From Escherichia coli (lineage in GTDB: Bacteria > Pseudomonadota > Gammaproteobacteria > Enterobacterales > Enterobacteriaceae): a DNA stretch of 64,000 nucleotides. The notes beneath the pieces were generated by a model. That model did not search any database. It saw only the letters and a program-made list of their open reading frames with translations, and was not told the origin of the DNA. Below are positions 10,996 to 59,566 of this stretch, in pieces. A program made the position numbers and the translations under genes. The stretch lies in assembly GCF_016903815.1 (NCBI RefSeq), contig NZ_CP069973.1; one strand, written 5' to 3'. Positions within the stretch are counted from its first letter, which is position 1, and each line of letters starts with the position of its first letter.

Positions 10996-12153
10996 ATGCT
11001 CACCGTTAAGCAGATTGAAGCAGCAAAGCCGAAAGAAAAACCATACCGCCTACTCGATGGTAATGGCCTGTACCTTTATGTCCCTGTGTCAGGGAAAAAG
11101 GTATGGCAGCTTCGCTACAAGATTGACGGTAAGGAGAAAATCCTGACTGTCGGAAAATATCCGCTTATGACTTTGCAGGAGGCAAGGGATAAGGCATGGA
11201 CTGCGAGGAAAGACATCTCGGTTGGCATCGATCCGGTAAAAGCGAAAAAGGCTTCGTCTAACAACAATTCCTTTAGTGTGATTTACAAGGAATGGTATGA
11301 GCACAAGAAGCAAGTCTGGTCAGTAGGCTATGCAACTGAACTTGCAAAAATGTTTGATGACGACATTTTACCTATCATCGGCGGCCTTGAAATTCAGGAT
11401 ATTGAGCCTATGCAACTGCTGGAAGTAATCCGCAGGTTTGAAGATCGCGGTGCAATGGAGCGAGCCAACAAAGCACGCAGAAGGTGCGGCGAGGTTTTCC
11501 GTTACGCTATTGTCACCGGCAGGGCTAAATATAACCCGGCACCTGACCTTGCTGACGCCATGAAGGGATACCGCAAGAAGAACTTCCCGTTTCTTCCAGC
11601 AGACCAGATCCCGGCATTCAACAAAGCACTTGCAACATTTTCAGGAAGTATCGTATCGCTCATTGCGACCAAAGTTTTACGCTACACAGCCCTAAGAACG
11701 AAAGAGCTTCGTTCCATGCAATGGAAGAACGTCGATTTTGAAAACAGGATTATCACCATCGACGCCAATGTGATGAAGGGACGCAAAATTCATGTGGTCC
11801 CGATGTCAGACCAGGTGGTTGAACTTCTCACTACGCTAAGCTCAATCACCAAACCAGTCTCAGAGTTTGTTTTTGCCGGGCGCAACGATAAGAAGAAGCC
11901 AATCTGCGAGAACGCGGTATTGCTTGTGATCAAACAAATCGGCTATGAAGGTCTGGAAAGCGGTCACGGATTCAGGCATGAATTCAGCACAATTATGAAC
12001 GAGCACGAATGGCCTGCTGACGCTATTGAAGTGCAGCTGGCACATGCCAACGGCGGATCTGTGCGCGGTATTTACAACCATGCTCAGTATCTCGATAAGC
12101 GCAGAGAAATGATGCAGTGGTGGGCGGACTGGCTTGATGAAAAGGTGGAGTGA
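10996..12153 (+). CDS. intS: P4-family tyrosine integrase (IntS-like), prophage integrase adjacent to argW
   Basis: ORF 10960-12153; start set at MLTVKQIEAAKPK...; C-terminal catalytic domain with HxxR-like 'HGFRHEF' and terminal Tyr region; matches my memory of IntS of the argW-associated CPS-53 prophage. Confidence 0.9.
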   Translation: MLTVKQIEAAKPKEKPYRLLDGNGLYLYVPVSGKKVWQLRYKIDGKEKILTVGKYPLMTLQEARDKAWTARKDISVGIDPVKAKKASSNNNSFSVIYKEWYEHKKQVWSVGYATELAKMFDDDILPIIGGLEIQDIEPMQLLEVIRRFEDRGAMERANKARRRCGEVFRYAIVTGRAKYNPAPDLADAMKGYRKKNFPFLPADQIPAFNKALATFSGSIVSLIATKVLRYTALRTKELRSMQWKNVDFENRIITIDANVMKGRKIHVVPMSDQVVELLTTLSSITKPVSEFVFAGRNDKKKPICENAVLLVIKQIGYEGLESGHGFRHEFSTIMNEHEWPADAIEVQLAHANGGSVRGIYNHAQYLDKRREMMQWWADWLDEKVE

Positions 12154-12269
12154 ACCACCTTAACCACTATCGAAGAGCACAAAACCTTGCAATCAAGTGC
12201 AAAGCTTTGTGTGTTATTTTTTATGGCTATATAAATTATATACTGCCAGTGCTATCTAACATTTAAATA

Positions 12270-12926
12270 TTATGAACTATAATAAGTCCTAATCTTTACA
12301 GATGAAAGCATAATCTTCCAAGCTTGATCGCTACCCAACCACTCATCGTTGGTTGGTTCATTATCACCAGATACTACATAAGTATCTGGCATATCAAAGT
12401 CTATATTGCAAAGGTCTTCTCCTTTGCGCTCCTTAAAAATAAGAAGATCTATTTTTGTTGTTGGGAATTTTTTATCCAAAACACTTCTCAGTTTATACAC
12501 AGCATCTCGTTCTGCATTCAATCTAACGAGTAAAACACGTTCCGACTCATTGATTTTCTCTATAAATCTTTTTCTTCTCGCCTTTATTTTTTTCATCATA
12601 TTAAACAAGCAGACTTCAATACCTTGTTTTTCATAGTCATCAATAAGAATATCGTGAATACTTCGAAATCCAGTCGCTGTATCTGTGATATCAATACAAT
12701 TTTTAAATCTGCCATTAATTTTTATATTTTCAGGCAAGAAAAGGTGGTCGCACCCCTTATTAATTATTTTTGTAACTTGAGGTAGTTTTTGAGAGGCAAA
12801 CCAATCAAATGGTCCACTAAATGTCCTCAACCCAAATCGCTTTAACCTTCCTGCTGGTTGACATTTTTTACCAAGGCTTGCTATAAAATCATACTCTCCA
12901 CAAGGAAGAAAAAGGCCTTTATTCAT
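12270..12926 (-). CDS. Hypothetical protein, possibly DUF1796-like (putative papain-like peptidase fold)
   Basis: ORF 12270-12962; start set at MNKGLFLPCGEYDF...; 'GPFDWF' motif recalled from DUF1796; AT-rich; sits between the integrase and the tailspike (conversion-gene position). Confidence 0.45.
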   Translation of the reverse strand: MNKGLFLPCGEYDFIASLGKKCQPAGRLKRFGLRTFSGPFDWFASQKLPQVTKIINKGCDHLFLPENIKINGRFKNCIDITDTATGFRSIHDILIDDYEKQGIEVCLFNMMKKIKARRKRFIEKINESERVLLVRLNAERDAVYKLRSVLDKKFPTTKIDLLIFKERKGEDLCNIDFDMPDTYVVSGDNEPTNDEWLGSDQAWKIMLSSVKIRTYYSS

Positions 12927-13043
12927 ATGATTTTCCTTACATTTTATGACGACAAAAATCATAACATTGCCTTATTAATCAGTCAAACAGTTAACAAATG
13001 CAAACAAACAAGTAAGCACATTGTTGATAATTTGTTTATTTTT

Positions 13044-13658
13044 ATGTTTTTGTTATCTATACCATTTTTTTCATTTGCTTCTGATACAAACAAAACGCCA
13101 CCATATCGCATGAGGGAGTCGATGTTTGAGTTATTAAAGGAGCAAAGGGATATTGTTATGCTTGGCGATAGCATAACCGCGCGAGGAGAGTGGAATGAGC
13201 TTCTTCCTAGTTTATCTGTAGCAAATAGGGGCATTGGGGGAGATGAAGTTAAATTTATGAAAAGAAGGATTGATTCTATATTTTTATTAAAGCCCAAATA
13301 TGTATTCATTATGGGCGGAACAAATGATTTCAGAAGAAAAAGAAGTGTTGATGATGTGGTTCGTGACTATAAGCATATAATAAAAAAACTACACAAACAC
13401 AGAATTAATGTATTCATTCAGTCCACCCTTTACGTGTCAAGAGAAAGCAGGTTAAATGACAACATAAAAATATTAAAATTAAACAATGCAATAAATAACT
13501 ATTGCTCTGTATCTAATTATTGTCGTTTCGTAGATCTTAACGTGCACATGGCAAAAGATAGAAAAATACTAGCTAAGTATAGCGATGATGGAGTCCATCT
13601 AAATGGTAATGGGTATTTAATGTGGGCGTCAATCATATACCCTTTAATTAAAAAATAA
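13044..13658 (+). CDS. SGNH/GDSL-family hydrolase (esterase/acyl-hydrolase) with N-terminal hydrophobic leader
   Basis: ORF 12858-13658; SGNH blocks visible: GDSIT (I), GIGG (II), GGTND (III), DGVHLN (V); start uncertain (set at MFLLSIPFFSFA to avoid overlap with the convergent ORF). Confidence 0.6.
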   Translation: MFLLSIPFFSFASDTNKTPPYRMRESMFELLKEQRDIVMLGDSITARGEWNELLPSLSVANRGIGGDEVKFMKRRIDSIFLLKPKYVFIMGGTNDFRRKRSVDDVVRDYKHIIKKLHKHRINVFIQSTLYVSRESRLNDNIKILKLNNAINNYCSVSNYCRFVDLNVHMAKDRKILAKYSDDGVHLNGNGYLMWASIIYPLIKK

Positions 13659-13665
13659 GAATAGT

Positions 13666-13697
13666 AAAAAACCATCTCATTATGAGGTGGTTTTTTA
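13666..13697. terminator. Bidirectional terminator between the SGNH gene and the tailspike gene
   Basis: Hairpin aaaaaccatctcat/tatgaggtggtttttt with flanking A- and T-runs. Confidence 0.5.
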
Positions 13698-13777
13698 TAT
13701 AGAATAAAGCAATAGAGGTTTATTTTATTTGTTTATCATGGCTTAATGCACTAGTACTTTAATTGAAAAAACTATAT

Positions 13778-16177
13778 TTATTTTAGTATCCATCCGGTAT
13801 TTCCTGTTCCTGTTTTTTTTTGATACCAATCACCATTATAATCAATGTACATTGACCCCTGAGGTGCGGTCACAACACCCTCAGGTGAACCGGAGCCTCT
13901 ATAAATTCCAAAGAGAGTTGTACCTCTTACTTTCTCGTATGCAAACAACAAACCATCTGAAGCCCTTCTGATACGCAACGGTTCGTGCTCTGAGTCCGAT
14001 GCAAATGTAGTGGTGCCGTTTGAATCTGTTTCCCTGGAAAAACTTCCATCTGTTCTTGTTCCTTCAATGATCGAATTTGGGTAGTTTGGATCATCAGATG
14101 AATGTAACCTAATATAGGAACTATTTGATGCTGATACCCCCCTACCCCTTAAAATCAATCCCTTAAATGATGACGTAAATAGTGCCTGGATTGAGCCATA
14201 AACAGTGTTATCACTACCGTTTTGCTGATCGTATATTCTTAGTCTTGAGCTATTATCATACATAATAGCGTTGAAGTACTCACCAAGACGTTCGCTAAAT
14301 GCAACAATATTAAAAGCATTGCGCCATCTAAATGATATATTTCGCCCGCTTTCTCCGGCATCTACACCTGCATTACTTGAAGCATTGGTTATGCCAGAAT
14401 TAAGGTTCTGCTCATCGTTGTTACCAGTCGCTGGTCGTATAGAGTAAATTGTCTTTTTCTCAAGAGAATAGCTACTTCCCCATCCATAATCTGTATCAGG
14501 ACTCCAGTCTCCAGAATTTGCATCCTTGGTTGTTTCCACCCAATAAGAGCCATTTGATGGAGGAACACCAATTATTCCAGAAGTCTCAATAGATGATGCA
14601 GCCCATCTTCTTCCACGCCAGTTTACAATATTAGCTCCTGCCCTCCATGTTTCTATGCAGCTTATAATTATTTCTTCGCCACGAATAGTTAAACCTTCCG
14701 GCTCGAATCTGGCTGGATTCCCAAGAGTTGGATGGTTAAGCAACCCATCGCGCCCATATTGCGACCTTGCATCATCGATATCTAATTTTCTTAGTAAATT
14801 ACCTGTTAAATCATATGTAAAGATATGATGCTTTCCAAAAGCATTAGTGCCTCCCTTAAGTATATGTATATATCTTCCATCAGACGCAATACCTTGTACA
14901 GAGTAAGCGCCTTCAGAAGGTGAGTCGCTCATTTCCCAAACAAACATGGGGTTTGCTAATGTTTTATCTTCAAGTTTATCAATTGATATTTTATCGTATA
15001 TAAATACAGTTCGTTTAGCGGCATCACTCTTTGGTGTATTAACCATTATTAAAAGACGACCGTCAGAAGAAATGGCAATTCCTGCACGATTGTAATCTTG
15101 AAATGGGTGACCGCTACCAGTAATCCCCCATACATTATAACTTTTTACGTCAGACTGAGTTGTTCCTGCCCCTCGCCAAGTTATTTTACTAAACCCTTTG
15201 CCTGCAGACTCCCCATCTTCACCTGAATTGGTTACACTTGATGTATATAAATATACTTGACCATTCTCCACCATGGCAGAAAGATCAAATCCGTGCCCAA
15301 GGTTTAATTCTGGAGAATACGCAACATGGTTTACTACCCTTCCATCATCATAAAGATTAAACTCAACAATACGAACTCTTTCTTTATCCGACCAGGTTGG
15401 CCCAACAGGCCGTTGTGTGACAAATAGTTTTTCAATGCCATTAACACGGCAATATGCGATCCCCTGTAACGCATTTCTGGCATTAGGATAAATTTCTGTG
15501 TTTGTTTCTCCCTGAAAACCAAAAAAAGGTTCCATCATTTTTCTCTGCGCAAGTTTGTCAGTTTCAAGTAGACGAGAAACGGAAATAAGAGAGCCATTAT
15601 CTGCAACAATCCTCCCAATACCTCGAGCAGAAGATACATCAACTTCGAGAGTATTTACTGCAAAATCGCCATCAGGAACAAACATTCTATAGCCTGCGTT
15701 AGAGAATGCCTCAGTAGCGTCAGTTATTCCATCACTGATAGCCCCCCAACCGCGAACATCTTTGTCATCACGCCATCGTGCAATCTGCAATTCGGGATAT
15801 TTTTTAGCACCATCCGGGTCTTCTAACTGCTGCCGTAGCTGATCCGGGTCATACTTCAGCACATTAGGGAAATAGAACTGCTGAGTGCCATATGCATCAT
15901 ATACAGCCATAGAATGGCCTTGAACAGTTACGAATTTGGCAATCTGCCCGTTATATACCGGATATCCAGCAGCGTTAATGATGATTGGCTGCGAAACAGG
16001 AACATGAGAGCCGTCTTCGTTCTCTACATAAACCTGAATCTGGTTTTCTGGACTTACCGGGTCAGTGTCAATTTTTCCGATATAAATTTTGCCGTTGGCT
16101 ACTGCTTTAAAAGAACGCGCCATAGTGAAGAGTTGCGAAGGCATACTCACTACAACATTGGCTGTAATGTCTGTCAT
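13778..16177 (-). CDS. P22-like tailspike protein (gp9 homologue) with conserved head-binding N-terminus and divergent receptor-binding body
   Basis: 799 aa; N-terminus [40 protein letters not shown]... is near-identical to the P22 tailspike head-binding domain as I remember it; the remainder differs. Confidence 0.85.
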
Positions 16178-16341
16178 TTAATTTTCTCCAGACGTAGCAA
16201 TGCGGAACAAGATGCAACTTGCCCGGCATTGCATTAATGTAAGTTATGATTTGTTAACTATGAGATGAGTCTATGCAAAAAGATCTGTTGAATATTGCGT
16301 TCTATATATTTGGTTTTTGCACATTTCTGGTGTTTGCAAAG

Positions 16342-18339
16342 CTATTCTGACAACGAATCAGACTTAGCCCCCTGCGTCAGAGCGTTAATTGCCTTTTGTG
16401 CCTGCTGCATTGCTTTCTCAAAGGCTGTTGATCCGCGTGGGGTGTTTGCCATTCTGAGCATTGCATTTCTGAATGGTTCGCTCTCATAGGCGCGAGTAAG
16501 AAGTCCGTAGCTTACTGCTGCGCCAGTTGTCGCCGGGTTCATTGCCGTCCCATACCCGATAATGAACGGGATGGTTTGCTGCCCTGTGGGTGTTGTTACT
16601 GCCGCTTTTGCTGCCTGCTGAGTGGACTGAAGGTAATTTTTCAATCCTTTCAGATAAGCAGCATCCTGCCCCTTAAATGTGATGCCAGTCTGGTTTTGCA
16701 GGATGTTAAGCTGCCGAAGGAACTGGTCAGGGGATCCGCCAGATTTCTCCATCGCCTTTCCAATGATGCCATTGCGCATTTGCGCCCTGCCAACACGACC
16801 AACTGAGTTATACAGAGTCTTAATTTCCGATTTGTTCTTGCTGAATAGCATGTTGTTGACAACTTCCGGCGTCAGATCGCCTTTCATGAGAACATTCTTC
16901 AGCCTGGTATTCTTTAGTTTAGCCGCTTCGTCAGCGTAGACGGCATTGGCCTGCTGATATTTACGGAGAGTATCGTTGCCAAGATTCTGACCAATGGCAC
17001 CATTGATATCGTCGGTCATTGCATTGTAAACGCGCTGAATGGCAGCATCGGAACGGTTTGGTAACACTGGTCGCTCACCCTTCACGTCCATTCTGAACTG
17101 GCTGCGCAGATCGCTTAATTGCTTCAAATCCAGATTTACCGGACCATCAGGACCAGCATTGCGAACAAGCTCATCACGATAGGACTGAAGTTTTGAAATT
17201 GTCTCGTTATCAGCCACCTTACCAAGCTTCTGCAGATTAGATATCTCAGTATCAATCTGCTGAATTGCTCGTGCAGGCTGAATGTTTACTCCAGCCATAG
17301 CATTCTGAACCTGCTCCAGTCGATTACCGGCGGCACGACGAATTCCTGATGTTTTCGCTTTAAGGCTGTCAATAACAACCGCTGGATCATACTCACCGAA
17401 TTTATCGGCAAATCTCTGCACCAACTGGCTTCTCGCTTCCTGTTGCGTTGCTCTCATTCCGCTTGTGCCAGCCAGGGGGATATTTTCTGCTGTAGTCTGC
17501 GCCATTTTCCCGACGCGGGAAGTAGGCTGTAACAGGTCTGTGGTGTGCAGAGGAACTCCTTCACGCTCTGCAAACCTGATAGCCTGTTGAGCTTCTGGTG
17601 CTATCGAACCACGAACACCACGATAAGCAGCACCTAATCCACGTCCGGCAGCGTTAATAGCACCGCCAGCCAGCACACCAACGCCTAAATCGGTGGCGAG
17701 TGCTTCCGCATCATCTTTCGCACTGTTTGCAGCAAGTGATCCAACTGCGTTTTCTGCTAGAAGGCGAGTTGCCCCCTGAGCAATTCGACCAGCAAGTGTT
17801 GGTGCCTGTGTTGCCGCTCTCTCAACGCCAGCAGGAGTGAGGTAAGGCAATGCTTCAGCAAATACCCTTCCCTCTGTCGTTTGTGGAGTCAGCGCGCCTT
17901 GCTGAAGGCCAAAGTCCTGCTCTAATCCCTGCGTTGTTACTCGTGGTGCTGGTTGATATGTACCATCGCCAATGCCGAGTTTACCGCCAGCCCAAGCCGC
18001 CGCGCTTGTTACAGCATCGGCAACTGATGCAGGTATGTTTGCCACATTCACGCCAGCCTGCACCAGTCCGCGACCAGTCTCTTTTACTGCTTCGCCAAGA
18101 TCAGACATAAATCCACTTTGCTGTGGTTGTTGCTGTGCTACTGGTTGCGGCGTCTCCACTGGCGACACAGATGGCAATGGATAGGCAGCATAGAAAGCTT
18201 GCTTAGCCTGCTCTGCATTTTCTCCGGCTTGCGGGGCCACGACTTCATTGAAGTATTGCTCCTGAGCCTGCGCTTTTTGTTCTGGTGCTAACGCCTGATA
18301 CTGTGGAGAGGCGATAACATCTTTCCATGCTTTAGCCAT
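16342..18339 (-). CDS. Ejection/injection protein (P22 gp16-like)
   Basis: 665 aa, Ala/Gln/Gly-rich; position and order (26-14-7-20-16-9) match the P22 ejection protein cassette. Confidence 0.55.
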   Translation of the reverse strand: MAKAWKDVIASPQYQALAPEQKAQAQEQYFNEVVAPQAGENAEQAKQAFYAAYPLPSVSPVETPQPVAQQQPQQSGFMSDLGEAVKETGRGLVQAGVNVANIPASVADAVTSAAAWAGGKLGIGDGTYQPAPRVTTQGLEQDFGLQQGALTPQTTEGRVFAEALPYLTPAGVERAATQAPTLAGRIAQGATRLLAENAVGSLAANSAKDDAEALATDLGVGVLAGGAINAAGRGLGAAYRGVRGSIAPEAQQAIRFAEREGVPLHTTDLLQPTSRVGKMAQTTAENIPLAGTSGMRATQQEARSQLVQRFADKFGEYDPAVVIDSLKAKTSGIRRAAGNRLEQVQNAMAGVNIQPARAIQQIDTEISNLQKLGKVADNETISKLQSYRDELVRNAGPDGPVNLDLKQLSDLRSQFRMDVKGERPVLPNRSDAAIQRVYNAMTDDINGAIGQNLGNDTLRKYQQANAVYADEAAKLKNTRLKNVLMKGDLTPEVVNNMLFSKNKSEIKTLYNSVGRVGRAQMRNGIIGKAMEKSGGSPDQFLRQLNILQNQTGITFKGQDAAYLKGLKNYLQSTQQAAKAAVTTPTGQQTIPFIIGYGTAMNPATTGAAVSYGLLTRAYESEPFRNAMLRMANTPRGSTAFEKAMQQAQKAINALTQGAKSDSLSE

Positions 18340-20887: not shown

Positions 20888-21588
20888 CAGTCAATCAGCC
20901 CATGTAATCTAAGTGCTGTTTCAAGCGCCAGAATACGCTGCCGCGCCTGCTCCAAACCTGTAGCGATAGCTGCGACTTCGGATTGTGTGTACGTAGTGCC
21001 GACCGTGTATGACTGGTTAGCGTTGAATGAGCCAAGAAGTGGTGTGCCTGTGGCCGCCGTCCATCCGGTCTGCCTTGCTCCAACGACCTGAATTCCATCA
21101 ACTGAATATGATGTTTTTACATCCAGCGGTGACGCAAGAGACTGCGATTCTGTTACGGTTTTCGATACGTAATCACTCTTAATGCCAGAGACATCGTTTT
21201 CTACGTCATCCAGTCTTTGGTCAACAGTGACCAGATGCGCCTGAATATCGATAACCTCATCCAGCAAGTAATCAACATCGCTACGCAGTACGACTATCTT
21301 CCCTTCGGCAGTTGTTAACCTGACCTCAAGTAGATTTATCGCTTTTGTGTTTGCGGTGATTCTTGCGTCGTGATCAGCCAGTTCGACGTCCTGTTCATCG
21401 TTTTTTACCTGAGCATCGTAAGCGCCCTGACCAGCCTGATTTGCCTTCCCGGCAATTGCGCCAACATCAGCACCCTGATTTATGACATACAGCAGGTAAG
21501 ACTGGCTGAATATATTGCGTGGAAGGATTGATGTATCGAGCCGCGTCGCCTGCACAATAACAGGGGTGTTGAGATTCGAATCAGCCAT
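20887..21588 (-). CDS. Tail needle protein (P22 gp26 homologue)
   Basis: 233 aa; N-terminus [25 protein letters not shown]... and C-terminus ...[32 protein letters not shown] closely match my memory of P22 gp26. Confidence 0.85.
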
Positions 21589-21985
21589 TACTCAATCCTC
21601 TGCCTTGCAAACTCTCCAAAATTTTCTGCTCTTGCCATCATTGATGCTGAGATAGCTTCGTCCAGGTCATCGAAGCATCCAACGTGAACCTGTTTTTTAT
21701 TTTTCTTGAAAGAAACAGTCCACTTGCAGAGATTTTTGTGCCAACAGACACCAGGATATCCTGACTTATTATTTCTTTGAATATTCCTGTTCATCCCATT
21801 CTGGGATCTATTTGCCAATCTTAAATTTGAAAATCTGTTATCCGTTCTGTCTCCGTTAATATGATCTATTAAGCAATTTGCAGGTTTTCCTGTCATATAA
21901 AACCAAGCAAGCCTATGCGCTAAGTATCTCTTACCACAGACCATTATCCTTAAATAACCAGTGCACATGGTTCCTGGATTTGCCC

Positions 21986-50043: not shown

Positions 50044-50206
50044 CCCGCTGTACACCAACGTCTACCATTGTCTATAAATCCCATGTAAACATATAAAAAT
50101 AAAGAGATTTTATTCTCATGACGTCCATTTCCGTCTATTGAAATCAAGTAAATCTATGGGGCATAATTAGGGGCATTGCTGGTTCGATTGTATATGTGCC
50201 CCCAAC

Positions 50207-51493
50207 ATGTCCAGAAATACCCTCAACAAATTAACAGACCGTCAGTGCAAAGCAGCTAAGCCACGAGACAAAACTTATAAATTGTCTGATGGTGGTGGTC
50301 TTTATCTTGAAGTATCCCAGACCGGGTCGAAGTATTGGCGAATGAAGTATCGCCGCCCATCAGATAAGAAAGAAGACAGACTTGCTTTTGGTGTATATCC
50401 AACCATTAGCTTACAAGACGCCAGAGAAAAACGAGACAACGCCAAAAAGTTGTTAGTCAAGGGGATAGATCCCAAAGCAGAGCAAAGAGCAGCAAAAGCA
50501 GAAGAAAAAGGCGCATTCACTTTTGAGACAATAGGACGTCAATGGGTTGAAAGCCACCAGATGTGGAACGAAGACCACCGAAAACGCGTACTTAGAAGCC
50601 TTGAAATGTATATTTTCCCTCACATTGGCACTTCGGATATTCGCAAACTGGAGGCGATGACAATTTTACCTTTGTTTAAGAAGGTAGATGACGCCGGGAA
50701 ACACGATACAGCCAACCGACTTAAACAACGAGTTAAGGACATCATACATAGCGCCCGTCTGAGCGGCATTAAGACAGAAATCATCACGAATGATCTCGAT
50801 GTCCGGTTAATGCAATATGAAACTAAGCATCATGCCGCACTACATCCCAGAGATTTACCAGACTTTTTCACTCGATTGGGCAGCTTTAAAGGTAATCCTC
50901 TTACCCGCCTTGCCATTGAGCTAACCATGTTGACATTTGTTCGTTCAAGCGAGTTAAGGTTTGCCCGTTGGAAAGAGTTTGACCTTGATCGGGCTGAGTG
51001 GATTATCCCTAAAAAAAGAGAGCCTATCGATGGTGTGAGGTTTTCCACCCGTGGCACAAAAACGGGAAAAGACGAACATATCGTGCTTCTTAGCCGTCAG
51101 GCTGTTTCTATTGTAAAGCAGTTGAGAGAACTAAGCGGAAGCTACGATGTTGTGTTTCCGAATGAAAGAAACACCAAAGGCGTGATGAGTGAAAACACGG
51201 TAAACAAGGCATTACGCTTAATGGGCTATAACACGCAAGAGGACGTAACTGGACATGGATTCCGTGCCACAGCCTGTAGTTCCCTGATGGAGTCCGGTTT
51301 GTGGCAGGAGGACGCAGTAGAGCGCCAGATGAGCCACAAAGAATATAAAGACGTTAAAAGAGCCTACAAGCACAAGGCTGATTACTTAGAAGAGCGCAAA
51401 CTAATGCTTCAATGGTGGGCAGATTATCTGGACGCCAATCGAGAAATACATATAAGCCCTTACGAGTTCGGAAGGAGAACACGCCGTGACTAA
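50207..51493 (+). CDS. P4-family tyrosine integrase (second, distinct integrase)
   Basis: 428 aa; N-terminal MSRNTLNKLTDRQCKAAKPRDKTYKLSDGGGLYLEV... (P4-int arm-binding type) and C-terminal catalytic 'HGFRATA' region; sits next to the att repeat. Confidence 0.9.
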   Translation: MSRNTLNKLTDRQCKAAKPRDKTYKLSDGGGLYLEVSQTGSKYWRMKYRRPSDKKEDRLAFGVYPTISLQDAREKRDNAKKLLVKGIDPKAEQRAAKAEEKGAFTFETIGRQWVESHQMWNEDHRKRVLRSLEMYIFPHIGTSDIRKLEAMTILPLFKKVDDAGKHDTANRLKQRVKDIIHSARLSGIKTEIITNDLDVRLMQYETKHHAALHPRDLPDFFTRLGSFKGNPLTRLAIELTMLTFVRSSELRFARWKEFDLDRAEWIIPKKREPIDGVRFSTRGTKTGKDEHIVLLSRQAVSIVKQLRELSGSYDVVFPNERNTKGVMSENTVNKALRLMGYNTQEDVTGHGFRATACSSLMESGLWQEDAVERQMSHKEYKDVKRAYKHKADYLEERKLMLQWWADYLDANREIHISPYEFGRRTRRD

Positions 51494-52241
51494 GATGACA
51501 GGACTAGATGCGTTTTATAACGAGTCAGAAGATAAAATCTGGTTTGGTAATCTGATCAGCGAACTGGCAAGACTAAACAATGAAAATGAAAGAATGATCG
51601 CTGCCGCTATCTTAAGTAACTACAGATTGAGCAAAGCTAAACCAGATACTTTAGGGGGGCTGGGCTTTTATCAGTTCGATTGGGTATCAGGTTTTACAAC
51701 TAATGACGACTTTGAAAAGCAGTGTGTGGAGTTTTTAGGTCTTCTGGCTATGGGGCATGAATACAGGGAGAGCCCGATACCGGGGGAAGAAGGGACTTTC
51801 AACGTTAGGAAAGGGGAAGACTTTTTATATCACGATGATGAGGATGATTGGTATGGGTCTTACGATTCGTTTTATTTCAAGCGCTCCGAGGTTGTGAACT
51901 TCTTCCCAGAACTGGATATGAATGTTCCAGATAACGAACCAGAAATTGGAGCACTGTCAAAAAAAGTAGAAAGAGAACAAAACTGGAGAGGAAAAGATAC
52001 GGCTTTAAAGATGATCGCCGGAATGGCGATTGCCTTATTTGAATCAAGCAAAGATTTCCATAGTGGAGGAAACCTTAGTATCAATAGGGTTAGTGCCCAA
52101 GTAATAGAAAACAACATAATATTCGGGAACGATGAAGACAGCGATACCCACCCAGATACATTTCGGAGATTGCTAACGAACGCTTTGGATAAGTACGCCC
52201 CCAAATTTAAGAAAAAAGCAACCAAAAAGCGTCCAAAATAA
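51486..52241 (+). CDS. Hypothetical acidic protein, overlapping the integrase stop
   Basis: 251-aa ORF overlapping int2 by 8 bp; no recognised motifs. Confidence 0.45.
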   Translation: MTKMTGLDAFYNESEDKIWFGNLISELARLNNENERMIAAAILSNYRLSKAKPDTLGGLGFYQFDWVSGFTTNDDFEKQCVEFLGLLAMGHEYRESPIPGEEGTFNVRKGEDFLYHDDEDDWYGSYDSFYFKRSEVVNFFPELDMNVPDNEPEIGALSKKVEREQNWRGKDTALKMIAGMAIALFESSKDFHSGGNLSINRVSAQVIENNIIFGNDEDSDTHPDTFRRLLTNALDKYAPKFKKKATKKRPK

Positions 52242-52397
52242 AGGAAGGATGTTCCCAAATTGTGCGTTAGAACTAAAAAATAACGCCCAATTTGGGGTAA
52301 TTCTATTCCCAAAAATTTTTTCTCCAAATTCACAGAAAACTTAAAAAAACAATGATTTACTATCTCACATAGTCAAGCAACGTATTACGAGGTAGAT

Positions 52398-52589
52398 ATG
52401 AAAAAGTCGCTGATTCGGCTATCTGAGGTTTTGAAACGCACTGGCTATAGCAAGGCGTGGGTATATGCTCTGATGAGCCGAGGACAATTCCCCCAATCAG
52501 TCAAGATTGGTGCTCGCGCAATAGCTTTTATTGAAAGCGAGATCGATGACTGGATCGATCAACGTATAGCCGAATCGCGTAGTAACTAA
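52398..52589 (+). CDS. AlpA-family transcriptional regulator / excisionase (island 2)
   Basis: 63 aa; 'RLSEVLKRTGYSKAWVYALMSRGQFPQSVKIGARAIAFIESEIDDWI' resembles the AlpA HTH family. Confidence 0.65.
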   Translation: MKKSLIRLSEVLKRTGYSKAWVYALMSRGQFPQSVKIGARAIAFIESEIDDWIDQRIAESRSN

Positions 52590-52637
52590 AGAACAGAAAC
52601 AAACAGGATACAAACAATACGTTATTAGGTATTAAGA

Positions 52638-52829
52638 ATGCAGTTGAAACCTACCAATCAAAAGCTGAACGTAACCCATGTTGATTTTGAAACCTTCGCG
52701 GCACTGATTAGATCAGAGCCACAAAAGGTGAGCACCAGCACCTGGGTTTATGATGTGAAATCCACCAGCGGTGGAAAAGCTATCGGCATTGCCTCTGGCG
52801 ATGATTACTTAGTAATAGATCTGATTTAA
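52638..52829 (+). CDS. Hypothetical small protein
   Basis: 63-aa ORF; position only. Confidence 0.3.
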   Translation: MQLKPTNQKLNVTHVDFETFAALIRSEPQKVSTSTWVYDVKSTSGGKAIGIASGDDYLVIDLI

Positions 52830-52910
52830 TCGCACAAAAATTGTAGAGTAATTTGGGGAGACAGGAAGTCTCCTCCATATTACATTTTGGTACAACAGTA
52901 AGGGAATAAA

Positions 52911-53105
52911 ATGATTAATTACCTGACCGCTAAAGACGCAGCAGAATATCTTGGCGTCTGTCTGTCACGCTTCTATCAGTTAAAGCGATATATCCGAAGC
53001 TTTCCTCCCTATATAAATCAGACCATCAATGGACGCAAGCGCCGGGTGTGGCTTGCCTCCAGCCTTGATCAATTTGCCGACAGATTTCTGGGGGGACGAA
53101 AATGA
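52911..53105 (+). CDS. Small HTH DNA-binding protein
   Basis: 64 aa; 'LTAKDAAEYLGVCLSRFYQLKR' looks like an HTH; ATGA overlap with the next ORF. Confidence 0.4.
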   Translation: MINYLTAKDAAEYLGVCLSRFYQLKRYIRSFPPYINQTINGRKRRVWLASSLDQFADRFLGGRK

Positions 53106-53488
53106 GCACTCTTACACGCTCTCAGGTCGCCGCGAATATACGCGATATCCTACTAAGTGGCAGGAAGCTTACCCCAAAAGAGTTTGACGACATATTAAGG
53201 AAAGCCGGAAATCACGAACGTAGTCGCGTTTTAACGCTGTTACGCAACGATTGGGGAATTCCTGTTGAGCAGTTTAAAACAGAGGCGTATCACGTCACAG
53301 AACGCAATTTAGAAGCATACCACAGCGATAAAGACGAAACATTGAAGATCTGGAGGACGAACGCCAGATATGTAAAGACATTGCGTAAGGTAAACATAAC
53401 GTTGTCGTTGTTGCGTGGGCTGGTGGGTAAAGTGCCTGAAGACACGCTTAGAACTGTTTACAAGGGTATTGAAACCAAATACCTGTGA
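53102..53488 (+). CDS. Hypothetical protein
   Basis: 128-aa ORF coupled to the upstream HTH gene. Confidence 0.4.
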   Translation: MSTLTRSQVAANIRDILLSGRKLTPKEFDDILRKAGNHERSRVLTLLRNDWGIPVEQFKTEAYHVTERNLEAYHSDKDETLKIWRTNARYVKTLRKVNITLSLLRGLVGKVPEDTLRTVYKGIETKYL

Positions 53489-53556
53489 TTGACAAAGCAG
53501 AAAGCCGACTTTGCGAGAGTCGGCTTTGAAGCAATTGAAATATATGAACTTTACAC

Positions 53557-54609
53557 ATGGAATTATACGATAAAGACGCGAGTCTATCCACAAAATCACA
53601 AGCCGTAATCAATCACATCAATGGTCGCACATTAGCTTATGTGAGATCAGTTACGCACAAACGTAATGAATTAAAGGCGGAGAATAAACGCCAATCATCA
53701 AAGGCTAACCACTGCATACCACCAGCTTGGACAAAGAAGAAATGGCGTACAATGAGGCGAGCTTTGTTTACTCTGGATGTCGAATCAACTAGTGGTATCC
53801 CCTACTCCTTTACCTTCAGACCCGTTAAGGGAACAACGCCAGAGAAATTCAACAAAGCGTTAAAGGCACTTACCAGATGGTTGACTTCGAAAGGCAATCA
53901 GTGGGTTTACGTCATGGAGTGGGCTCAACACCAGTCAGAGCCGCATGTACACGCAATAATTATGGTGAACGAAAGAAGCATTAATGGGCAAGCAGGCAAA
54001 ATTGTCAGCAAATGGGTAACACTGGCAAACAATGCAATCCCATCAAATGTTCCTCCCCAGTGGGATCTAGATTTGAAAGGTCAGCAATATTCAGAGCCTA
54101 CAAGGTGTATAGGTAAACAGATTGATTACATGGCAAAACCCGAAACTAAGTTAAATGACTTTAATAGAGAGGCGAGCAAGAGCCTATATGATTGGTCAGA
54201 TGCCAACGTTTGGGGTTATTCGAATGGCTGGGCGCGGCATGAGATAAAAAAAGAAACACTTTCTATCACTGGCTTTCATGCTGTAAGACGCATACTAAAA
54301 GCCATTCAGGCATCAAGGAAAGACAACTACAAAGTTAAGCGACAGATACAGCGTACATTGAAACGACAAGACATAAATCGCTCACCAATCACCCCGTTCC
54401 AAGCACCGTTAATTAGCAAACACGATTGGGATTTATCAGTGATAGCGGTCACCAAAGAGGCAGAGACAGAGCGCAGGGAGTTACTATCCTCACAGACAAT
54501 AAACTCGAACAAAGTACAAACCCACCCGCTGTTAAGGATGTTAAGAAAAGCACGAGTGAGAGCATCCAGAGCCAGAAGAGAAAGCGGAGGTTATGACCAT
54601 TACTACTAG
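53557..54609 (+). CDS. Putative replication initiation protein (HUH-type Rep)
   Basis: 350 aa; candidate HUH motif 'PHVHAIIMV'; basic C-terminus; followed by GC-rich short repeats (54670-54730) in an AT-rich context. Confidence 0.5.
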   Translation: MELYDKDASLSTKSQAVINHINGRTLAYVRSVTHKRNELKAENKRQSSKANHCIPPAWTKKKWRTMRRALFTLDVESTSGIPYSFTFRPVKGTTPEKFNKALKALTRWLTSKGNQWVYVMEWAQHQSEPHVHAIIMVNERSINGQAGKIVSKWVTLANNAIPSNVPPQWDLDLKGQQYSEPTRCIGKQIDYMAKPETKLNDFNREASKSLYDWSDANVWGYSNGWARHEIKKETLSITGFHAVRRILKAIQASRKDNYKVKRQIQRTLKRQDINRSPITPFQAPLISKHDWDLSVIAVTKEAETERRELLSSQTINSNKVQTHPLLRMLRKARVRASRARRESGGYDHYY

Positions 54610-55407
54610 TAGTGACAGATCGTGACAAGGCAGAGCAAAAAACGACCAATATAAGAGAAATATCCCTGCCCAATCGCCAAAAGCGCGGAGCGCGGAGCGC
54701 GGCAAGCGCCGCGAGAGGCGCAAGAAGGCGAACCTATCCATTGAAACGGTCAGAAGAGCGCATCGCGCTCGATGACCGAAGTCCCCACTAACACCGTTAA
54801 CGAAAGATCAAAGTCTTAGAAAAAAATGACGTTTCTTTGAAGGGCTTCCATCCGTAAAAATCAAATTTTGAGATAAAGTACTTATAGAAATTAATCACTC
54901 TATAAGAGTGAGTTGACGTGAGTTTGAAGTGAGCAACATATTAAAAATATATATAATAATCAAACATATAATAACAACTACTGAGCAAAAATCACCAGAA
55001 AACAACGTCAACGTAACGTCACTCTGTAAGCACTTTTTCAGTCACTTTTTGGGTTGAATACACGTATAAATCCCCAACCATGAAATTTGAGCGCGTAAGC
55101 ACGACTCTGAAAGGCTTTTTATCTTTTAACCATTTAATATACCTGAGGTATTGAAGAAGATTCTGAGACATATACTAGAACTTTACCGTGCACGACTAAC
55201 AACATAAACGTTATATTTATATATAAATCAATGAGATAAATACATCCCCATCCAAAAAACAAGCATAACGCAAAATTGCGTTATCAACTTAAAAGGTACG
55301 ATTGAATCTGACAGTCTGCTCTGAGCGAAATGTGGGCACGTTCACCATAAGTCTCCAGATTGAAACGAAATGATAGTGTTAAATGTTCGATAGTTACTTT
55401 TCTAAGC

Positions 55408-56400
55408 TCAACGTTCGTAATAGTAATCCGACACCTCAGTAAAATCTATTTCCTCCCTAGAAAGTAATGATTCCATCTCATCTAGTTTATCGATTTGAGG
55501 CAAAACACTTGTTGGTGAAATCACAACATTAAAGTCCTCATTATATCGGTGACCTACCCTTGTGAGCTCTTTACCTAATTGCAACAATATATAATCACGT
55601 AAAATAAGTTGATTCCGTCTAAATCGAATAAGACGATAGTAATGGAAGAAATCAGAACATTTTGATGAATCATAATTTCTACCATTCCACCCGGTTTTCC
55701 TCGTAGCTCGGAATAATGCTTGCTCTTGCGTATTTTTCCAAATGCTAAAATCAAAGTGACTTTTCGGGTTAGGATTTTCGTATGTTGCTTGAGGATAAAA
55801 ATTAGTAACACCAAATTGATGCTTGTCAATGATCTTTAAAGTCCGATTTTGTTCAGACAACATCCGCCTTAAGGACCTAGGAATTTCGAAACGCATTAGT
55901 TTGTTTTTATCCAAGATTCTTAATTCTCTTGGAAGCATCTCATGATCCCGTTCTAAATATCTTTCACACCGTTTCGGCACATACTGAAAATACACTGAAA
56001 AAAAACAAAATATATTATCAGAAACGAGAGGAGTAATATGTATTTTTTCTTGCTCAGGAACGTTTTGAACAAAATAGTATGCCGTTCCTTGCCAAATCAA
56101 CGATTGCGCTACTGCCTCCACCAATTCACGTATTGTTTCATCTACCGAGTATTTCCTATATCTAGCTTGTAAATTTCCAAACATTTTACGTATGAGTTCT
56201 TCGTCGTTAGTTTCGACTTGAAACAAATTGGTATCACCGTGATTTACAAAATTAAAAACTCTAGCAAAATCCTCATAAAACATCCTTTGATAGAAACCTG
56301 GTCGTTCATTCTTAGACTTGGTCAATAGTCTATCAACAAAACTTAATTGCTCAGGATCGACGCTATAACCGTAAAGGGGTATATTCTTGATAATTTTCAT
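55408..56400 (-). CDS. Uncharacterised soluble protein, second gene of a candidate two-gene accessory (defence?) operon
   Basis: 330-aa ORF, ATG at 56400 with AGGA 7 nt upstream; ATGA overlap with the upstream gene stop; AT-rich; no family motif recognised by eye. Confidence 0.6.
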   Translation of the reverse strand: MKIIKNIPLYGYSVDPEQLSFVDRLLTKSKNERPGFYQRMFYEDFARVFNFVNHGDTNLFQVETNDEELIRKMFGNLQARYRKYSVDETIRELVEAVAQSLIWQGTAYYFVQNVPEQEKIHITPLVSDNIFCFFSVYFQYVPKRCERYLERDHEMLPRELRILDKNKLMRFEIPRSLRRMLSEQNRTLKIIDKHQFGVTNFYPQATYENPNPKSHFDFSIWKNTQEQALFRATRKTGWNGRNYDSSKCSDFFHYYRLIRFRRNQLILRDYILLQLGKELTRVGHRYNEDFNVVISPTSVLPQIDKLDEMESLLSREEIDFTEVSDYYYER

Positions 56401-58862
56401 TCAAAATCCTTATCGTATTCCACGCCAAAACGACGAGCCAACTCACTAACATGGTAATCGATCTTGAAGTCAATTTGCTCGAGTTGCGGGAAAATTTCGA
56501 GAGCACAAAAGAGATGCGATGCATCTGAATGGGAGTTTAAGAACTCTCTGACAACTTTGTTCGTATGAGATTTCCCTCGATTCATTCCCATTTGATCGCT
56601 AAAGCCATCATGTCTTGCGCGGCGCTCAAATTCCATTTTCCAGTTAAGACGAATCATATCTCTCGGTGATGCGCACAAGCTGAAATTGCGCGGATTTGAA
56701 AGAATCATCATTCTCTTCAAATACTGCTGTTTGTTGGGAACAGACTCGAGCCAAGACTTAAACCTATCAAGTACTGTTTTAGATAGTTTTGCATTATCGA
56801 AATAAGCACTGTAAAGGATAGCAAAACCTAGAACTGACATCAGATCGTTGATCGCGGATGAAAGGAGATGCAGTCGAAACTCGTTGTTTATATCGAGTTT
56901 CGGATCTACAAATTTGGTATCTGATGCCAGCAATGAGAGAACCATGAACATAGGGAATACCTTGCTCAGTTTATTTTCATCATTCTGTTCAAGCGCATGT
57001 ATACATTCCTCAGCCAACTCAAAATATATCTGTCCAAAATGATCCGGTAGTTCATCATCTTGCTCTTGTTCAATGATATGTCCCACAATTTCCACCCTAC
57101 CAAGAATAGCTATAGCTTCATCCTGTGTAACGACAAACTGTTTGAGCATTTCAGCAATATTAATTTCTGGTAATGCGTATAGCTTTTCAGAGTAGTGCTC
57201 GTACTTTCTGTATCTCTCCAAGAGCAGAGAAAGTTCATTAAACCAATGGGGAAACTTCAAATGATTATGTAGGCTAGCGAGAACGACTTGCGTTGCGGCT
57301 TCCGGCATCTTCATGTTTATCAGTGAGTTAACGAAATCTGGAACCATGTTTACGTGAAAATCGCATACTTCTGGCAGAATTTTAGAATATTGTTGTAATA
57401 ACTTCTGAACCGCCAACTGCTGGACGTACTTTGGTTTGGATAATCTCTGTCCTTCAATCTCTTTTTCGAATTCGATACGTTCTACGATAAAGGCCAACTC
57501 AACCTGCAGAAAAGCAGGCAAAGTGTGTAGAGAGGTCTCTGTCCAGATATCATCTTTAAAGAACTGCTCCAATTCTTTCTCAAAAGTAATCATGCGGCGT
57601 AACATTTCAAGGCAAAGATTGCTGCCTAATGCAGCCCATGCATCCGCAATTCCAACTTTTATCACCTTTTCCTCAAAATAATTAACGACATCAGACGGTG
57701 TAAAGGCTTTTTCAATGATCGTCTTCATTTTCCGAAGTTCACGTATACCAATATCGAACTGAAACTGTTGTGCATAAGTTAATATACGAGATGAGAATAG
57801 ACTGATGAGATCCAACCCGAGCTTGAAATCACCGGCTTTGAATGCAAGTTCAATATGGCCTACCAACCTATTGATAATTTCATTCTCTAACCAAAGATAA
57901 TTTGGTTCTTCTTCAACCGTTAATTGGCTCCTTGTTTTTAAAGCAATGGATGTTACACTGTCGCCAGCTAAGAACCATTGCTTATGTTTTATTCGTCTAG
58001 GGAACCAGTAACTTTGATAATCAATTCTGTGTTTCTGATTAAGGTAATGAAGAAGTAATGCCGAATAAACATTACTGAGAGCAGGTAAATTATCTCCGAG
58101 TCCTACTTTTTCACATATCAGGCGATCATCAATGTAGTTTAACTGCTCAAAGGCCAAATGTGCGGCTTTAGAGTGATGATTAGCTAAAGATACTGAATTC
58201 TTGGGATTAGACGCACCTTCGATGTGTCGTGCAATTCGTGGGAGTATTTCACTTCGGGCTAACTGATTTAGGTCAAAAAAATTGAATAATCTTTGACCTA
58301 ATGGGAACAGAGCTAAGGAACTAACAAGTGTCAGCAATGTTCCCATTGCATAAACGAAAAGACCGGGTTCAACCCCGAACAAGTGGAGAGCAGTTGCACT
58401 AAGACAAAACACCGCAGAAAGCACTAAAGTCCGCGAATACACATTACCTACCTGCTCGGTAGTAAGCATTTGTATAATATCTCGCCGAAGTCTGGTATAT
58501 CCTGTACTTAGAATGATACCTATTGTAGCAAAGTATATTGAAAATATAGCGGTAAGTATCTGTGCGTACAACCTAAGTTGATCAATATTAAATTTTTTTT
58601 CATCATAGCTAAGAGGATGAAGCAAAATCGTATTATTCCGAATATAATCTTCAACAAAACCCAGTGCAAATAACGTTAATATGACCCATAACAAATTTTT
58701 TAAACCTACCAACGCAAAAGACATAAAAACATGAGCGTTAGACTTAGCTTTAAAAACAGACGTACGATGTATGTATGACGCACGTTCTAAAATAAATCTA
58801 ACCCTCACAAGATCTGTTCTTAATTTCCAGAACCACTTTTGAGAAATAAGCCAAACCTTCAT
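56397..58862 (-). CDS. Uncharacterised large membrane-anchored protein (four N-terminal TM helices plus ~600-aa cytoplasmic domain), first gene of the candidate operon
   Basis: ORF 56397-58874 (TTG) with first ATG at 58862 (about 821 aa); hydrophobic segments VFMSFALVGLKNLLWVILTLFALGF, LYAQILTAIFSIYFATIGIILST, RTLVLSAVFCLSATALHLF, LFVYAMGTLLTLVSSLALFPL; no Walker A, HNH or other obvious motif found by eye. Confidence 0.6.
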   Translation of the reverse strand: MKVWLISQKWFWKLRTDLVRVRFILERASYIHRTSVFKAKSNAHVFMSFALVGLKNLLWVILTLFALGFVEDYIRNNTILLHPLSYDEKKFNIDQLRLYAQILTAIFSIYFATIGIILSTGYTRLRRDIIQMLTTEQVGNVYSRTLVLSAVFCLSATALHLFGVEPGLFVYAMGTLLTLVSSLALFPLGQRLFNFFDLNQLARSEILPRIARHIEGASNPKNSVSLANHHSKAAHLAFEQLNYIDDRLICEKVGLGDNLPALSNVYSALLLHYLNQKHRIDYQSYWFPRRIKHKQWFLAGDSVTSIALKTRSQLTVEEEPNYLWLENEIINRLVGHIELAFKAGDFKLGLDLISLFSSRILTYAQQFQFDIGIRELRKMKTIIEKAFTPSDVVNYFEEKVIKVGIADAWAALGSNLCLEMLRRMITFEKELEQFFKDDIWTETSLHTLPAFLQVELAFIVERIEFEKEIEGQRLSKPKYVQQLAVQKLLQQYSKILPEVCDFHVNMVPDFVNSLINMKMPEAATQVVLASLHNHLKFPHWFNELSLLLERYRKYEHYSEKLYALPEINIAEMLKQFVVTQDEAIAILGRVEIVGHIIEQEQDDELPDHFGQIYFELAEECIHALEQNDENKLSKVFPMFMVLSLLASDTKFVDPKLDINNEFRLHLLSSAINDLMSVLGFAILYSAYFDNAKLSKTVLDRFKSWLESVPNKQQYLKRMMILSNPRNFSLCASPRDMIRLNWKMEFERRARHDGFSDQMGMNRGKSHTNKVVREFLNSHSDASHLFCALEIFPQLEQIDFKIDYHVSELARRFGVEYDKDFE

Positions 58863-59087
58863 TATATCAATCAAGTGATACCTGCCTTCTCATCTCTACA
58901 TGCAACATAAAAATGCTTACTATGGTGGCAAACAAAATCAAGAATCATATGTTTGAACACTTTTTACGCACGAATTATCCGGTGTAAGATACTTATAGTC
59001 AAATGGCAGGGCTAATCTCATCTGTATTGAGCTATTAACAGCCATATGTAAGACTAAGAAACGCGCCCAGCAAAGGCGCGTTCTGCA

Positions 59088-59264
59088 TCAGGTAAGTTTG
59101 CTGGGGTCTACGGTTTCCATCCAATCTGGAGCAATTCCCAAACGTTCCGCTATCTCTTCGTTGGTCATGTCTTCAGTTGAGAAATTAGCCAGAGAATCGT
59201 TAACTTCAGGATAGTCAGGGGAGAGTAACAGGTATTCCCGCAACGCTTTCAGATCTTTTTCCAT
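59088..59264 (-). CDS. Small hypothetical protein with downstream terminator
   Basis: 58-aa ORF (MEKDLKALREYLLLSPDYPEVNDSLANFSTEDMTNEEIAERLGIAPDWMETVDPSKLT), not in the ORF track; followed on its strand by hairpin aacgcgcc/ggcgcgtt (59056-59086). Confidence 0.3.
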   Translation of the reverse strand: MEKDLKALREYLLLSPDYPEVNDSLANFSTEDMTNEEIAERLGIAPDWMETVDPSKLT

Positions 59265-59431
59265 TTTAACGCTCCTTGTTTATTGACAGTCGAACGATGG
59301 TGAAGATTCTTGCCATCTCAAGTACAGGCAAGAAAATCCACCAGAACACCAAATTATCTCATAAGGTTAAATCGGTGTCGGGCTATTTCTTTCGGCTAGG
59401 TGAGTGTACCGCCTTAACCACCGGCAATTAT

Positions 59432-59560: not shown

Positions 59561-59566
59561 AATGCA

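Follow-up and report, generated by a model that had tools for sequence, protein, structure and literature searches.

The stretch of Escherichia coli DNA analysed here (64,000 nucleotides of contig NZ_CP069973.1, hereafter the window) is a piece of chromosome carrying a P22-like (Lederbergvirus) prophage integrated at argW, and the subject of this report is the tailspike gene of that prophage. The encoded tailspike joins a P22-type head-binding domain to a predicted body that structure prediction, fold search and profile comparison identify as a five-bladed beta-propeller with beta-sandwich domains, homologous to the 'platform-tower' receptor-binding proteins (RBPs) of Gram-positive phages. We consider it reasonably probable that the protein is a capsule-directed tailspike with a teichoic-acid-type binding pocket, and we infer from comparative genomics that its target is the rare K24-type group 2 capsule and not an O antigen. 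Tailspike swapping in P22-like phages is textbook knowledge. Databases already contain the sequence under generic names, PGAP calling the product a 'phage head-binding domain-containing protein'; the annotated tailspike of the induced Escherichia phage vB_EcoP-683R2 is 100% identical to it, and that of phage Gally, an active P22-like prophage of E. coli strain LF82, is 98.6% identical. No functional description was found in the literature searched, which also contained no Gram-positive teichoic-acid-binding-type body described on a Gram-negative podovirus.

The head-binding domain and the propeller body

Residues 1-113 of the tailspike matched the entire Pfam Head_binding profile PF09008 (profile positions 1-113 of 113, E 1.2e-66, 222 bits), and PDB structures of tailspike N-terminal domains, among them those of Sf6 gp14 and P22 gp9, matched the same residues with E values of 3e-64 to 2.5e-44, so that by its PF09008 N-terminal module the protein belongs to the P22-like tailspikes. 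Homology with P22 and Sf6 establishes this domain as the part through which the tailspike would dock on the virion. An earlier note on this DNA had described the first ~110 residues as nearly identical to P22; the head-binding domain is real, but the first 110 residues are 75.5% identical to P22, and the near-identity is instead with Sf6 (91.8%) and with HK620 and CUS-3 (about 91%). Further along, residues 114-205 contain 'DVRGWGA..G..D.T.AF', a motif similar to the N-terminal cap found in beta-helix tailspikes, and PDB entry 9vvr_A matched residues 113-175. The tailspikes of CUS-3 (90.6%) and vB_EcoP-720R6 align to residue 159 at about 91-92% identity. Since the N-terminal similarity runs to about residue 159, the recombination junction lies nearer residue 150-160 than 110. 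Past about residue 159 there is no P22-like similarity, in agreement with the divergence that the earlier note reported for the remainder of the protein, and its reading of a module swap is likewise borne out by a conserved head-binding domain on a foreign body, the same body standing behind a different N-terminus in another prophage type.

A single-protein sequence search of the PDB returned matches confined to the N-terminal part and none for the body. An AlphaFold2 model was built on an alignment of 99 sequences (relatives of about 30% identity) and reached a mean predicted local distance difference test (pLDDT) score of 83.7 and a predicted template modelling (pTM) score of 0.76, with pLDDT >90 for about residues 140-730 and low confidence at the N-terminus because the alignment was without that part. 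The modelled body consists of five four-stranded blades (about residues 206-530), all-beta/beta-sandwich domains (531-730) and a C-terminal domain of 70 residues with pLDDT 55-77, which has no Pfam family and recurs as repeats in giant proteins. Searching the PDB with Foldseek, the top matches to the body were the RBPs of phi11, 80alpha, P68 and NF5 (E about 1e-10 to 1e-11), other leading matches being other propeller proteins, and the top match in BFVD was the neck appendage of GA-1 (E 5e-44). The five-bladed fold was closest to the solved members of the PF21311 type (5EFV, 6IAB and 6V8I), and the 99-sequence body profile was homologous to bona fide PF21311 members with conserved cavity residues. 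The earlier note had expected a beta-helix; no beta-helix fold was among the leading Foldseek matches to the body and no beta-helix Pfam family (such as PF12708 or PF13229) was found in the protein, structure prediction giving propeller and beta-sandwiches instead. As to its suggestion of an endoglycosidase, deacetylase or similar enzyme, the body resembles the wall-teichoic-acid-binding proteins of Gram-positive phages and no known endoglycosidase or deacetylase tailspike, and searches of Pfam, PHROGs and NCBIfam with the body returned only a sub-threshold PF21311 match and an uninformative PHROG, with no known depolymerase family. Since the propeller family is a glycopolymer-binding fold, however, the body does not lack a polysaccharide-binding fold, a lack that the note had named as the outcome that would speak against its view.

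An exhaustive HMMER search retrieved 712 cluster representatives, which vary widely in their N-terminal anchors and 112 of which fell below 1e-30. In a set of 50,697 phage records, only ten phages had the propeller; they include Bacillus phage GA-1, a phi29-like Tetragenococcus phage, the N4-like coliphages PGN829.1 and Pollock, and some T7-like coliphages. The window tailspike is 45.7% identical to the PGN829.1 fibre; prophage RBPs like RBP1 of PGN829.1 have been described in O11, O83, O86 and O102 strains (PMC10408124), and a tie between these and the window tailspike could not be confirmed. Literature on G7C gp66, Gamaleyavirus and propeller tailspikes yielded nothing on the family of the window tailspike. 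Peptidase_S74 (PF13884) was not found in the window tailspike and is present in the relatives P0004, P0008, P0011, P0012 and P0014-P0017; the PDB matches of the family profile were mainly to S74 chaperone domains, a domain that the window tailspike is without.

The conserved pocket and its possible catalysis

The conserved residues of the propeller are Q238, E266, R269, H295, K327, T339, Q428, Y474, E492 and E494. Across the 99 relatives (~30% identity), E492 was invariant, H295, Q428, Q238, E494 and T339 were conserved at 97-99%, and K327, R269, E266 and Y474 at 87-92%. The motif [QHAE]-G-[ILF]-[ATD] occurred exactly five times, once per blade (238 QGIA, 295 HGFD, 365 AGIA, 428 QGIA and 494 EGLT), and each copy formed the start of the innermost strand of its blade; the fifth blade position is A365, and E492, R269 and K327 lie nearby. 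By propeller geometry, the conserved polar residues would ring the central funnel of the propeller. A weak alignment with phi11 Gp45 paired H295 with H209 (beside Thr211), Q428 with Gln330, and E492/E494 with E385/E387, and the LQG motif at 237-239 mirrors phi11 Met164-Gln165. The phi11 cavity that is proposed to hold the N-acetylglucosamine (GlcNAc) of wall teichoic acid is reported to be lined by Gln165, Thr211, Gln330, Met164 and Met329 (PMC4901313). Judged by sequence, the pocket is an ancestral feature of the receptor-binding family.

If the capsule is the target, we lean slightly on balance towards a pocket that is also catalytic and cuts the capsule polymer. The tailspike could instead be a capsule-binding adhesin without catalysis, which would hold the K24-type polymer in the manner of phi11 Gp45 and leave the virion to reach the membrane by multivalent binding that is reversible, or by way of capsule gaps; no enzymatic activity is known for phi11 Gp45, and soaking with GlcNAc failed (PMC4901313). 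We regard a purely adhesive role as possible but unlikely. Twelve polar or charged residues are 78-100% conserved across relatives with presumably different receptors, a degree of conservation seen more typically at catalytic or metal sites than at sites that determine specificity. In GA-1, moreover, the propeller replaces the beta-helix of phi29 gp12, which degrades teichoic acid, and to our knowledge all characterised capsule-specific podovirus spikes are depolymerases. The slight tilt to an enzymatic role comes from the secreted propeller homologue that the host capsule locus encodes (see below), as such biosynthetic loci commonly carry enzymes that would cut or trim the polymer, not lectins.

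A bolder proposal, which we put forward tentatively and think doubtful, is that the P68 RBP/TagC-like propeller is an unrecognised class of polymer-cutting enzyme for phosphodiester- or Kdo-linked (3-deoxy-D-manno-octulosonate-linked) teichoic-acid-like glycopolymers. Such a class might, with the same reservation, be common to Gram-positive phages attacking wall teichoic acid, to E. coli phages on K24-/K2-like group 2 capsules, and to bacterial capsule and teichoic-acid loci. If so, TagC/PF21311 would gain a function and E. coli K antigens a new depolymerase fold.

Host genomes and the K24-type capsule

Strain 2779, in which the tailspike cassette is identical, has a group 2 kps locus whose region 2 genes encode a TagD-like cytidylyltransferase, a GT29-family protein, a TagF/TagB-family glycerophosphotransferase, a TPR protein and a 'phage baseplate protein'. 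The last of these is a secreted propeller (Table 1). The kps propellers, of 319-322 amino acids, are bona fide members of PF21311 (E 1.7e-15, 57.8 bits) and show homology to the propeller of the tailspike (by hhalign, E 1e-9 to 6e-12 at a probability of 96.5-97.5%; BLASTP E 7e-9), with which they have the motifs VQG, GHxG, KG and (W/F)EPEGL in common. Their relatives in Rahnella and Acinetobacter are named 'P68 RBP/TagC-like beta-propeller domain-containing protein' in UniRef, a name that ties the propeller fold to teichoic-acid operons. The K24-type capsule may itself be teichoic-acid-like. E. coli B, BL21 and C carry the secreted kps propeller as well.

Host comparisons covered 5426 complete genomes, and their association statistics are uncorrected for phylogeny. 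The tailspike body was found in 43 genomes, 39 of which hold one kps region 2 (K24-type); this region 2 is present in 60 of the 5426 genomes, and the overlap of 39 compares with 0.48 expected (Fisher p 5e-79, with the same caveat). Hosts of the K24-type region 2 include LF82, NRG857C and the K24-serotyped A0 34/86 (96% identity). K24 contains alpha-Kdo (PMC12887879).

The earlier note had left the target as 'O-antigens or capsules', and the host genomes point to the second of these and away from the first. A classic O-antigen-specific tailspike would recognise and cleave the O antigen of the host serogroup, as most P22-like tailspikes do (P22, Sf6, HK620), whose position in the genome is identical. 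We hold this to be very improbable here: bodies of 98-100% DNA identity were found in both O102 and O83 hosts, whose O-antigen clusters differ, and the body has no beta-helix. Strain 2779 has O102 wzx/wzy, whereas LF82 and NRG857C are O83:H1 and A0 34/86 is O83:K24:H31; with O102 wzx/wzy in the host of a 100% identical cassette and near-identical spikes in O83 strains, the O antigen was rejected as the target. Within 60 listed O102 genomes, the tailspike was present in 13 of the 22 with the K24-type locus and in 3 of the 38 without it, the other 35 of these 38 being without tailspike as well. The three O102 carriers lacking the K24-type locus are WCHEC strains, of which the one examined, WCHEC4533, has a cytidine diphosphate (CDP)-ribitol-type region 2 in its place; this would fit a capsule switch after lysogeny, which is itself an assumption.

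The body was found in three prophage contexts, namely at argW, at torS/torT (Gally), and in another prophage beside yfgI with a different N-terminus, and tailspike variants and K-locus variants (two sequence variants) were combined reticulately. Together with the association within O102, these contexts and combinations argue against a purely clonal explanation. In A0 34/86 (L010:6380-8956), the same body, with 98.3% DNA identity from ~residue 149, forms part of an 858-amino-acid protein with a different N-terminus; this protein, named 'phage head protein' in RefSeq, lies in the other prophage type beside yfgI and is followed by holins and a GH19 endolysin.

The pattern recurs in two diverged relatives. 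Strain PK5, a K24-type host, carries at argW a diverged trio of tailspike, SGNH esterase and DUF1796 gene; its tailspike is near-identical at the N-terminus to ~residue 150 and then diverges, the body being 55% identical with the same propeller and C-terminal motif. Bodies of the PK5 type were found in 2 genomes, both of them K24-type hosts (2/2). The P0017-type tailspike, with a body 36% identical and an S74 chaperone, lies in a prophage beside thrS; its body was found in exactly 5 of the 5426 genomes, and these five are precisely the ones that have a distinct kps region 2 of the CDP-glycerol type. The P0017-type spike is followed by a hexapeptide-repeat acetyltransferase (L013:4367-5077), a layout like that of the CUS-3 endosialidase and neuO.

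Several observations weigh against a capsule-directed spike with a teichoic-acid-type pocket. On the side of the hosts, four carriers (the three WCHEC strains and WW2) are without the K24-type region 2, some of the carriers counted are clonal or are duplicate assemblies (three of strain 405, two of LF82, and ST405-like strains), a single clone may account for all five P0017 genomes, and the receptor assignment comes from genome association and comparison. The glycerol-phosphate enzymes of the locus may build only the linker between the poly-Kdo anchor and the polymer (PMC11666461). On the side of the protein, the direct PF21311 ('phage 5-bladed beta propeller receptor binding platform') score over residues 293-462 is 16.5 bits against a gathering cut-off of 23.7 (E 0.0067), the match of the body profile to phi11 Gp45 by hhalign is weak (E 0.008, probability 5%), and it is from propeller geometry and that alignment that the conserved residues are placed in a single pocket. 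Since phi11 Gp45 is without shown activity, a conserved pocket is also no proof of catalysis.

The four carriers without the K24-type locus would also suit some other shared receptor, such as a lipopolysaccharide (LPS) core type, enterobacterial common antigen or an outer-membrane protein, in which case the K-locus association would be a by-product of clonal descent. Many carriers belong to one O102 clone in an association left uncorrected for phylogeny, and Klebsiella-phage propeller RBPs are reported to associate poorly with single capsule types (PMC12491483). We nevertheless think another receptor improbable, as the association holds within O102, across O83 and O102, in all three prophage contexts and with both reticulately combined K-locus variants, as the two diverged relatives repeat it, and as the K locus encodes a homologous propeller.

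For the favoured capsule-directed tailspike, the following course of events is proposed. The trimer would attach to the tail hub through its N-terminal head-binding domain, in the manner of P22 and Sf6, and the pocket would bind one unit of the K24-type group 2 capsule of the host, a polymer that contains Kdo and is made by a locus encoding CDP-glycerol/TagF-family enzymes. With three pockets on each of six spikes, capture of the capsule layer would be multivalent, and the pocket may also cut the polymer, so that the short-tailed virion could move down to the outer membrane. In lysogens, the SGNH esterase and the DUF1796 protein encoded beside the tailspike might alter the same capsule, by analogy with neuO of CUS-3.

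If the capsule is indeed the target, this tailspike would be the first candidate RBP, and possibly depolymerase, for the E. coli K24 capsule, whose carriers include the Crohn's-associated LF82, the probiotic A0 34/86 and many multidrug-resistant O102 (ST405-like) isolates. Receptor-binding modules would then cross the Gram divide where target chemistry is similar, and the function of TagC-like propellers in capsule and teichoic-acid loci would become directly testable. Gally lysogenises cured LF82 and forms no plaques on K-12 wbbL+, C or TD2158 (PMC9928086), and a K24-type receptor could explain this failure on standard laboratory strains. The tailspike and mnt genes of Gally are induced 6- to 40-fold inside macrophages without virion production (PMC9928086), and these data would also be open to re-reading.

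Prophage setting and comparison with known systems

The coordinates of the tailspike, its domains, the neighbouring genes and the kps propellers are collected in Table 1.

Table 1. Positions of the tailspike, its domains, neighbouring features and the related capsule-locus propellers (window coordinates unless a locus prefix is given).
Feature	Position	Strand	Basis or remark
Tailspike gene	13778..16177	(-)	single open reading frame (ORF), ATG start, 799 aa + stop codon
P22-type head-binding (tail-hub docking) domain, residues 1-113	15839..16177	(-)	Pfam PF09008 and PDB matches
Neck/linker and small alpha/beta domain, residues 114-205	15563..15838	(-)	CUS-3/720R6 alignment, PDB, model
Five-bladed beta-propeller ('platform'), residues ~206-530	14588..15562	(-)	presumed receptor-binding, possibly catalytic domain
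All-beta domains, residues ~531-730	13988..14587	(-)	occupy the position of the phi11 Gp45 'tower'
C-terminal domain, residues ~731-799	13781..13987	(-)	in place of the S74 intramolecular-chaperone domain of many relatives
gp16-like DNA-ejection protein, last of three, directly upstream of tailspike	16342..18339	(-)	ORF; DNA transfer/ejection annotation in 683R2, Gally, RefSeq
SGNH/GDSL esterase, hydrophobic signal-like N-terminus	13044..13658	(+)	Pfam Lipase_GDSL_2 E 4.5e-21
DUF1796 protein (putative papain-like fold), no signal peptide	12270..12962	(-)	Pfam PF08795 E 8e-16
IntS-type tyrosine integrase	10960..12153	(+)	Pfam Phage_integrase, Arm-DNA-bind_3, Phage_int_M; PGAP name intS
tRNA-Arg(CCU) argW, prophage attachment site	10760..10834	(+)	ARAGORN
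Secreted PF21311 propeller of kps region 2, strain 2779	L006:22318-23283		322 aa, signal peptide; PGAP 'phage baseplate protein'
Secreted PF21311 propeller, CDP-ribitol-type locus of WCHEC4533	L007:15464-16423		76% identical to K24-type version

The tailspike gene stands in the canonical order, after three ejection-protein genes (gp7/gp20/gp16 homologues) and before the integrase at the prophage end; this P22-like position was read from the order of ORFs in the window and from the annotation that vB_EcoP-683R2 and RefSeq strain 2779 carry for the identical region. The prophage extends from argW, a site that is preceded by yfdC and also used by CUS-3-like prophages, to an excisionase gene (torI) at ~49.9 kb of the window, and the region 9500-17000 is 100% identical in four complete genomes, strain 2779 among them. 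A scan for promoters and terminators around the tailspike gene gave a signal at or below shuffle expectation and was not used.

Next to the tailspike, the SGNH esterase and DUF1796 genes form a divergent pair with a guanine-cytosine (GC) content of 34-36% (window 12270-13658). The start of the esterase is uncertain (13044, 13110 or 13122, within a long ORF from 12858), and the protein is probably periplasmic as judged from its N-terminus; the PK5 orthologue is 55% identical and has a clear signal peptide. Both genes were found in 31 genomes, always beside a window-type tailspike, and a DUF1796 variant was found in the PK5 and EC19 prophages, in PK5 beside the diverged tailspike. As the pair is confined to tailspike neighbours and co-diverges with the tailspike in PK5, the three genes constitute a linked module, which agrees with the earlier note's advice to read the tailspike together with an adjacent conversion-like module. 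Gally carries the spike but neither of these two genes. By analogy with neuO of CUS-3 and with the P0017 prophage, and with a confidence that is low to moderate, the pair may have a capsule-modifying conversion role in lysogens; tailspike, secreted SGNH esterase and DUF1796 protein would then make up a candidate capsule-conversion unit analogous to the endosialidase/NeuO pair of CUS-3.

Elsewhere in the prophage, an IS2 element with two transposase ORFs is inserted at window 21986-23259, as it is in strain 2779; it is flanked on one side by the gp10 tail gene (23421-24839) and on the other by a small HNH-endonuclease-like gene (21588-22001), which lies ahead of the tail-needle gene. The IS2 element appears to have clipped this small gene, whose product is 137 amino acids long in the window and 164 in vB_EcoP-683R2. 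A second integrative element lies directly past the excisionase end (window ~50200-60000; record NZ_CP103521.1 1498196-1508182), with its own tyrosine recombinase, small helix-turn-helix and MerR regulators, a 'rolling circle replication-associated protein', a serine recombinase and two large hypothetical proteins (about 820 and 330 amino acids), the GC content being low, at 36-39%, in the part around 55-59 kb; possibly the element is a satellite or a defence island that stands in tandem with the prophage. In the composition profile, another low-GC stretch (35-39%) was seen at window 7001-9000, in the chromosomal flank upstream of yfdC/argW.

Among known systems, CUS-3 is likewise a P22-like prophage at argW, with a tailspike N-terminus 90.6% identical over residues 1-159. 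It bears a beta-propeller spike aimed at a group 2 capsule (K1) and has the capsule-modifying neuO moron between tailspike and integrase. The CUS-3 body, however, is a six-bladed GH58 endosialidase with S74 (PF12217, PF12218, PF12195 and PF13884, as in P0027-P0048), whereas the window tailspike contains none of these four families and is five-bladed, of the P68 RBP/TagC type. Similarity to CUS-3 stops at residue 159 and the family profile matches endosialidases through the S74 region only, which places the window tailspike outside the GH58 endosialidases. The morons differ as well, a hexapeptide acetyltransferase (neuO) in CUS-3 as against the SGNH esterase and DUF1796 protein beside the window tailspike.

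The staphylococcal RBPs phi11 Gp45, 80alpha gp61 and the P68 tail fibre (5EFV, 6V8I and 6IAB) have only 12-14% sequence identity to the window tailspike. They have a coiled-coil stem and serve phages of Gram-positive hosts, whereas the window tailspike has a P22 head-binding domain and neck, a Gram-negative host and a presumed capsule ligand. Neck appendage gp12 of GA-1 is a true sequence homologue (tblastn E 4e-46; 26% identity over residues 207-659 and 30.7% over the propeller) and, too, a host-recognition spike of a podovirus; it differs in its S74 intramolecular chaperone end (PDB 3GUD) and in its N-terminal anchor. With P22 gp9, Sf6 gp14 and HK620 gp9, the window tailspike has in common PF09008, the gene position and the role of host-range determinant. 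Those three tailspikes are right-handed beta-helix endoglycosidases for O antigens, and their beta-helix bodies show no similarity to the window tailspike after about residue 120-160. The kps/TagC-like secreted propellers (PF21311) differ in being single-domain host proteins of 319-322 amino acids with a signal peptide, outside any virion, but they have the same pocket residues as the tailspike and are encoded in the very capsule locus that marks the tailspike hosts.

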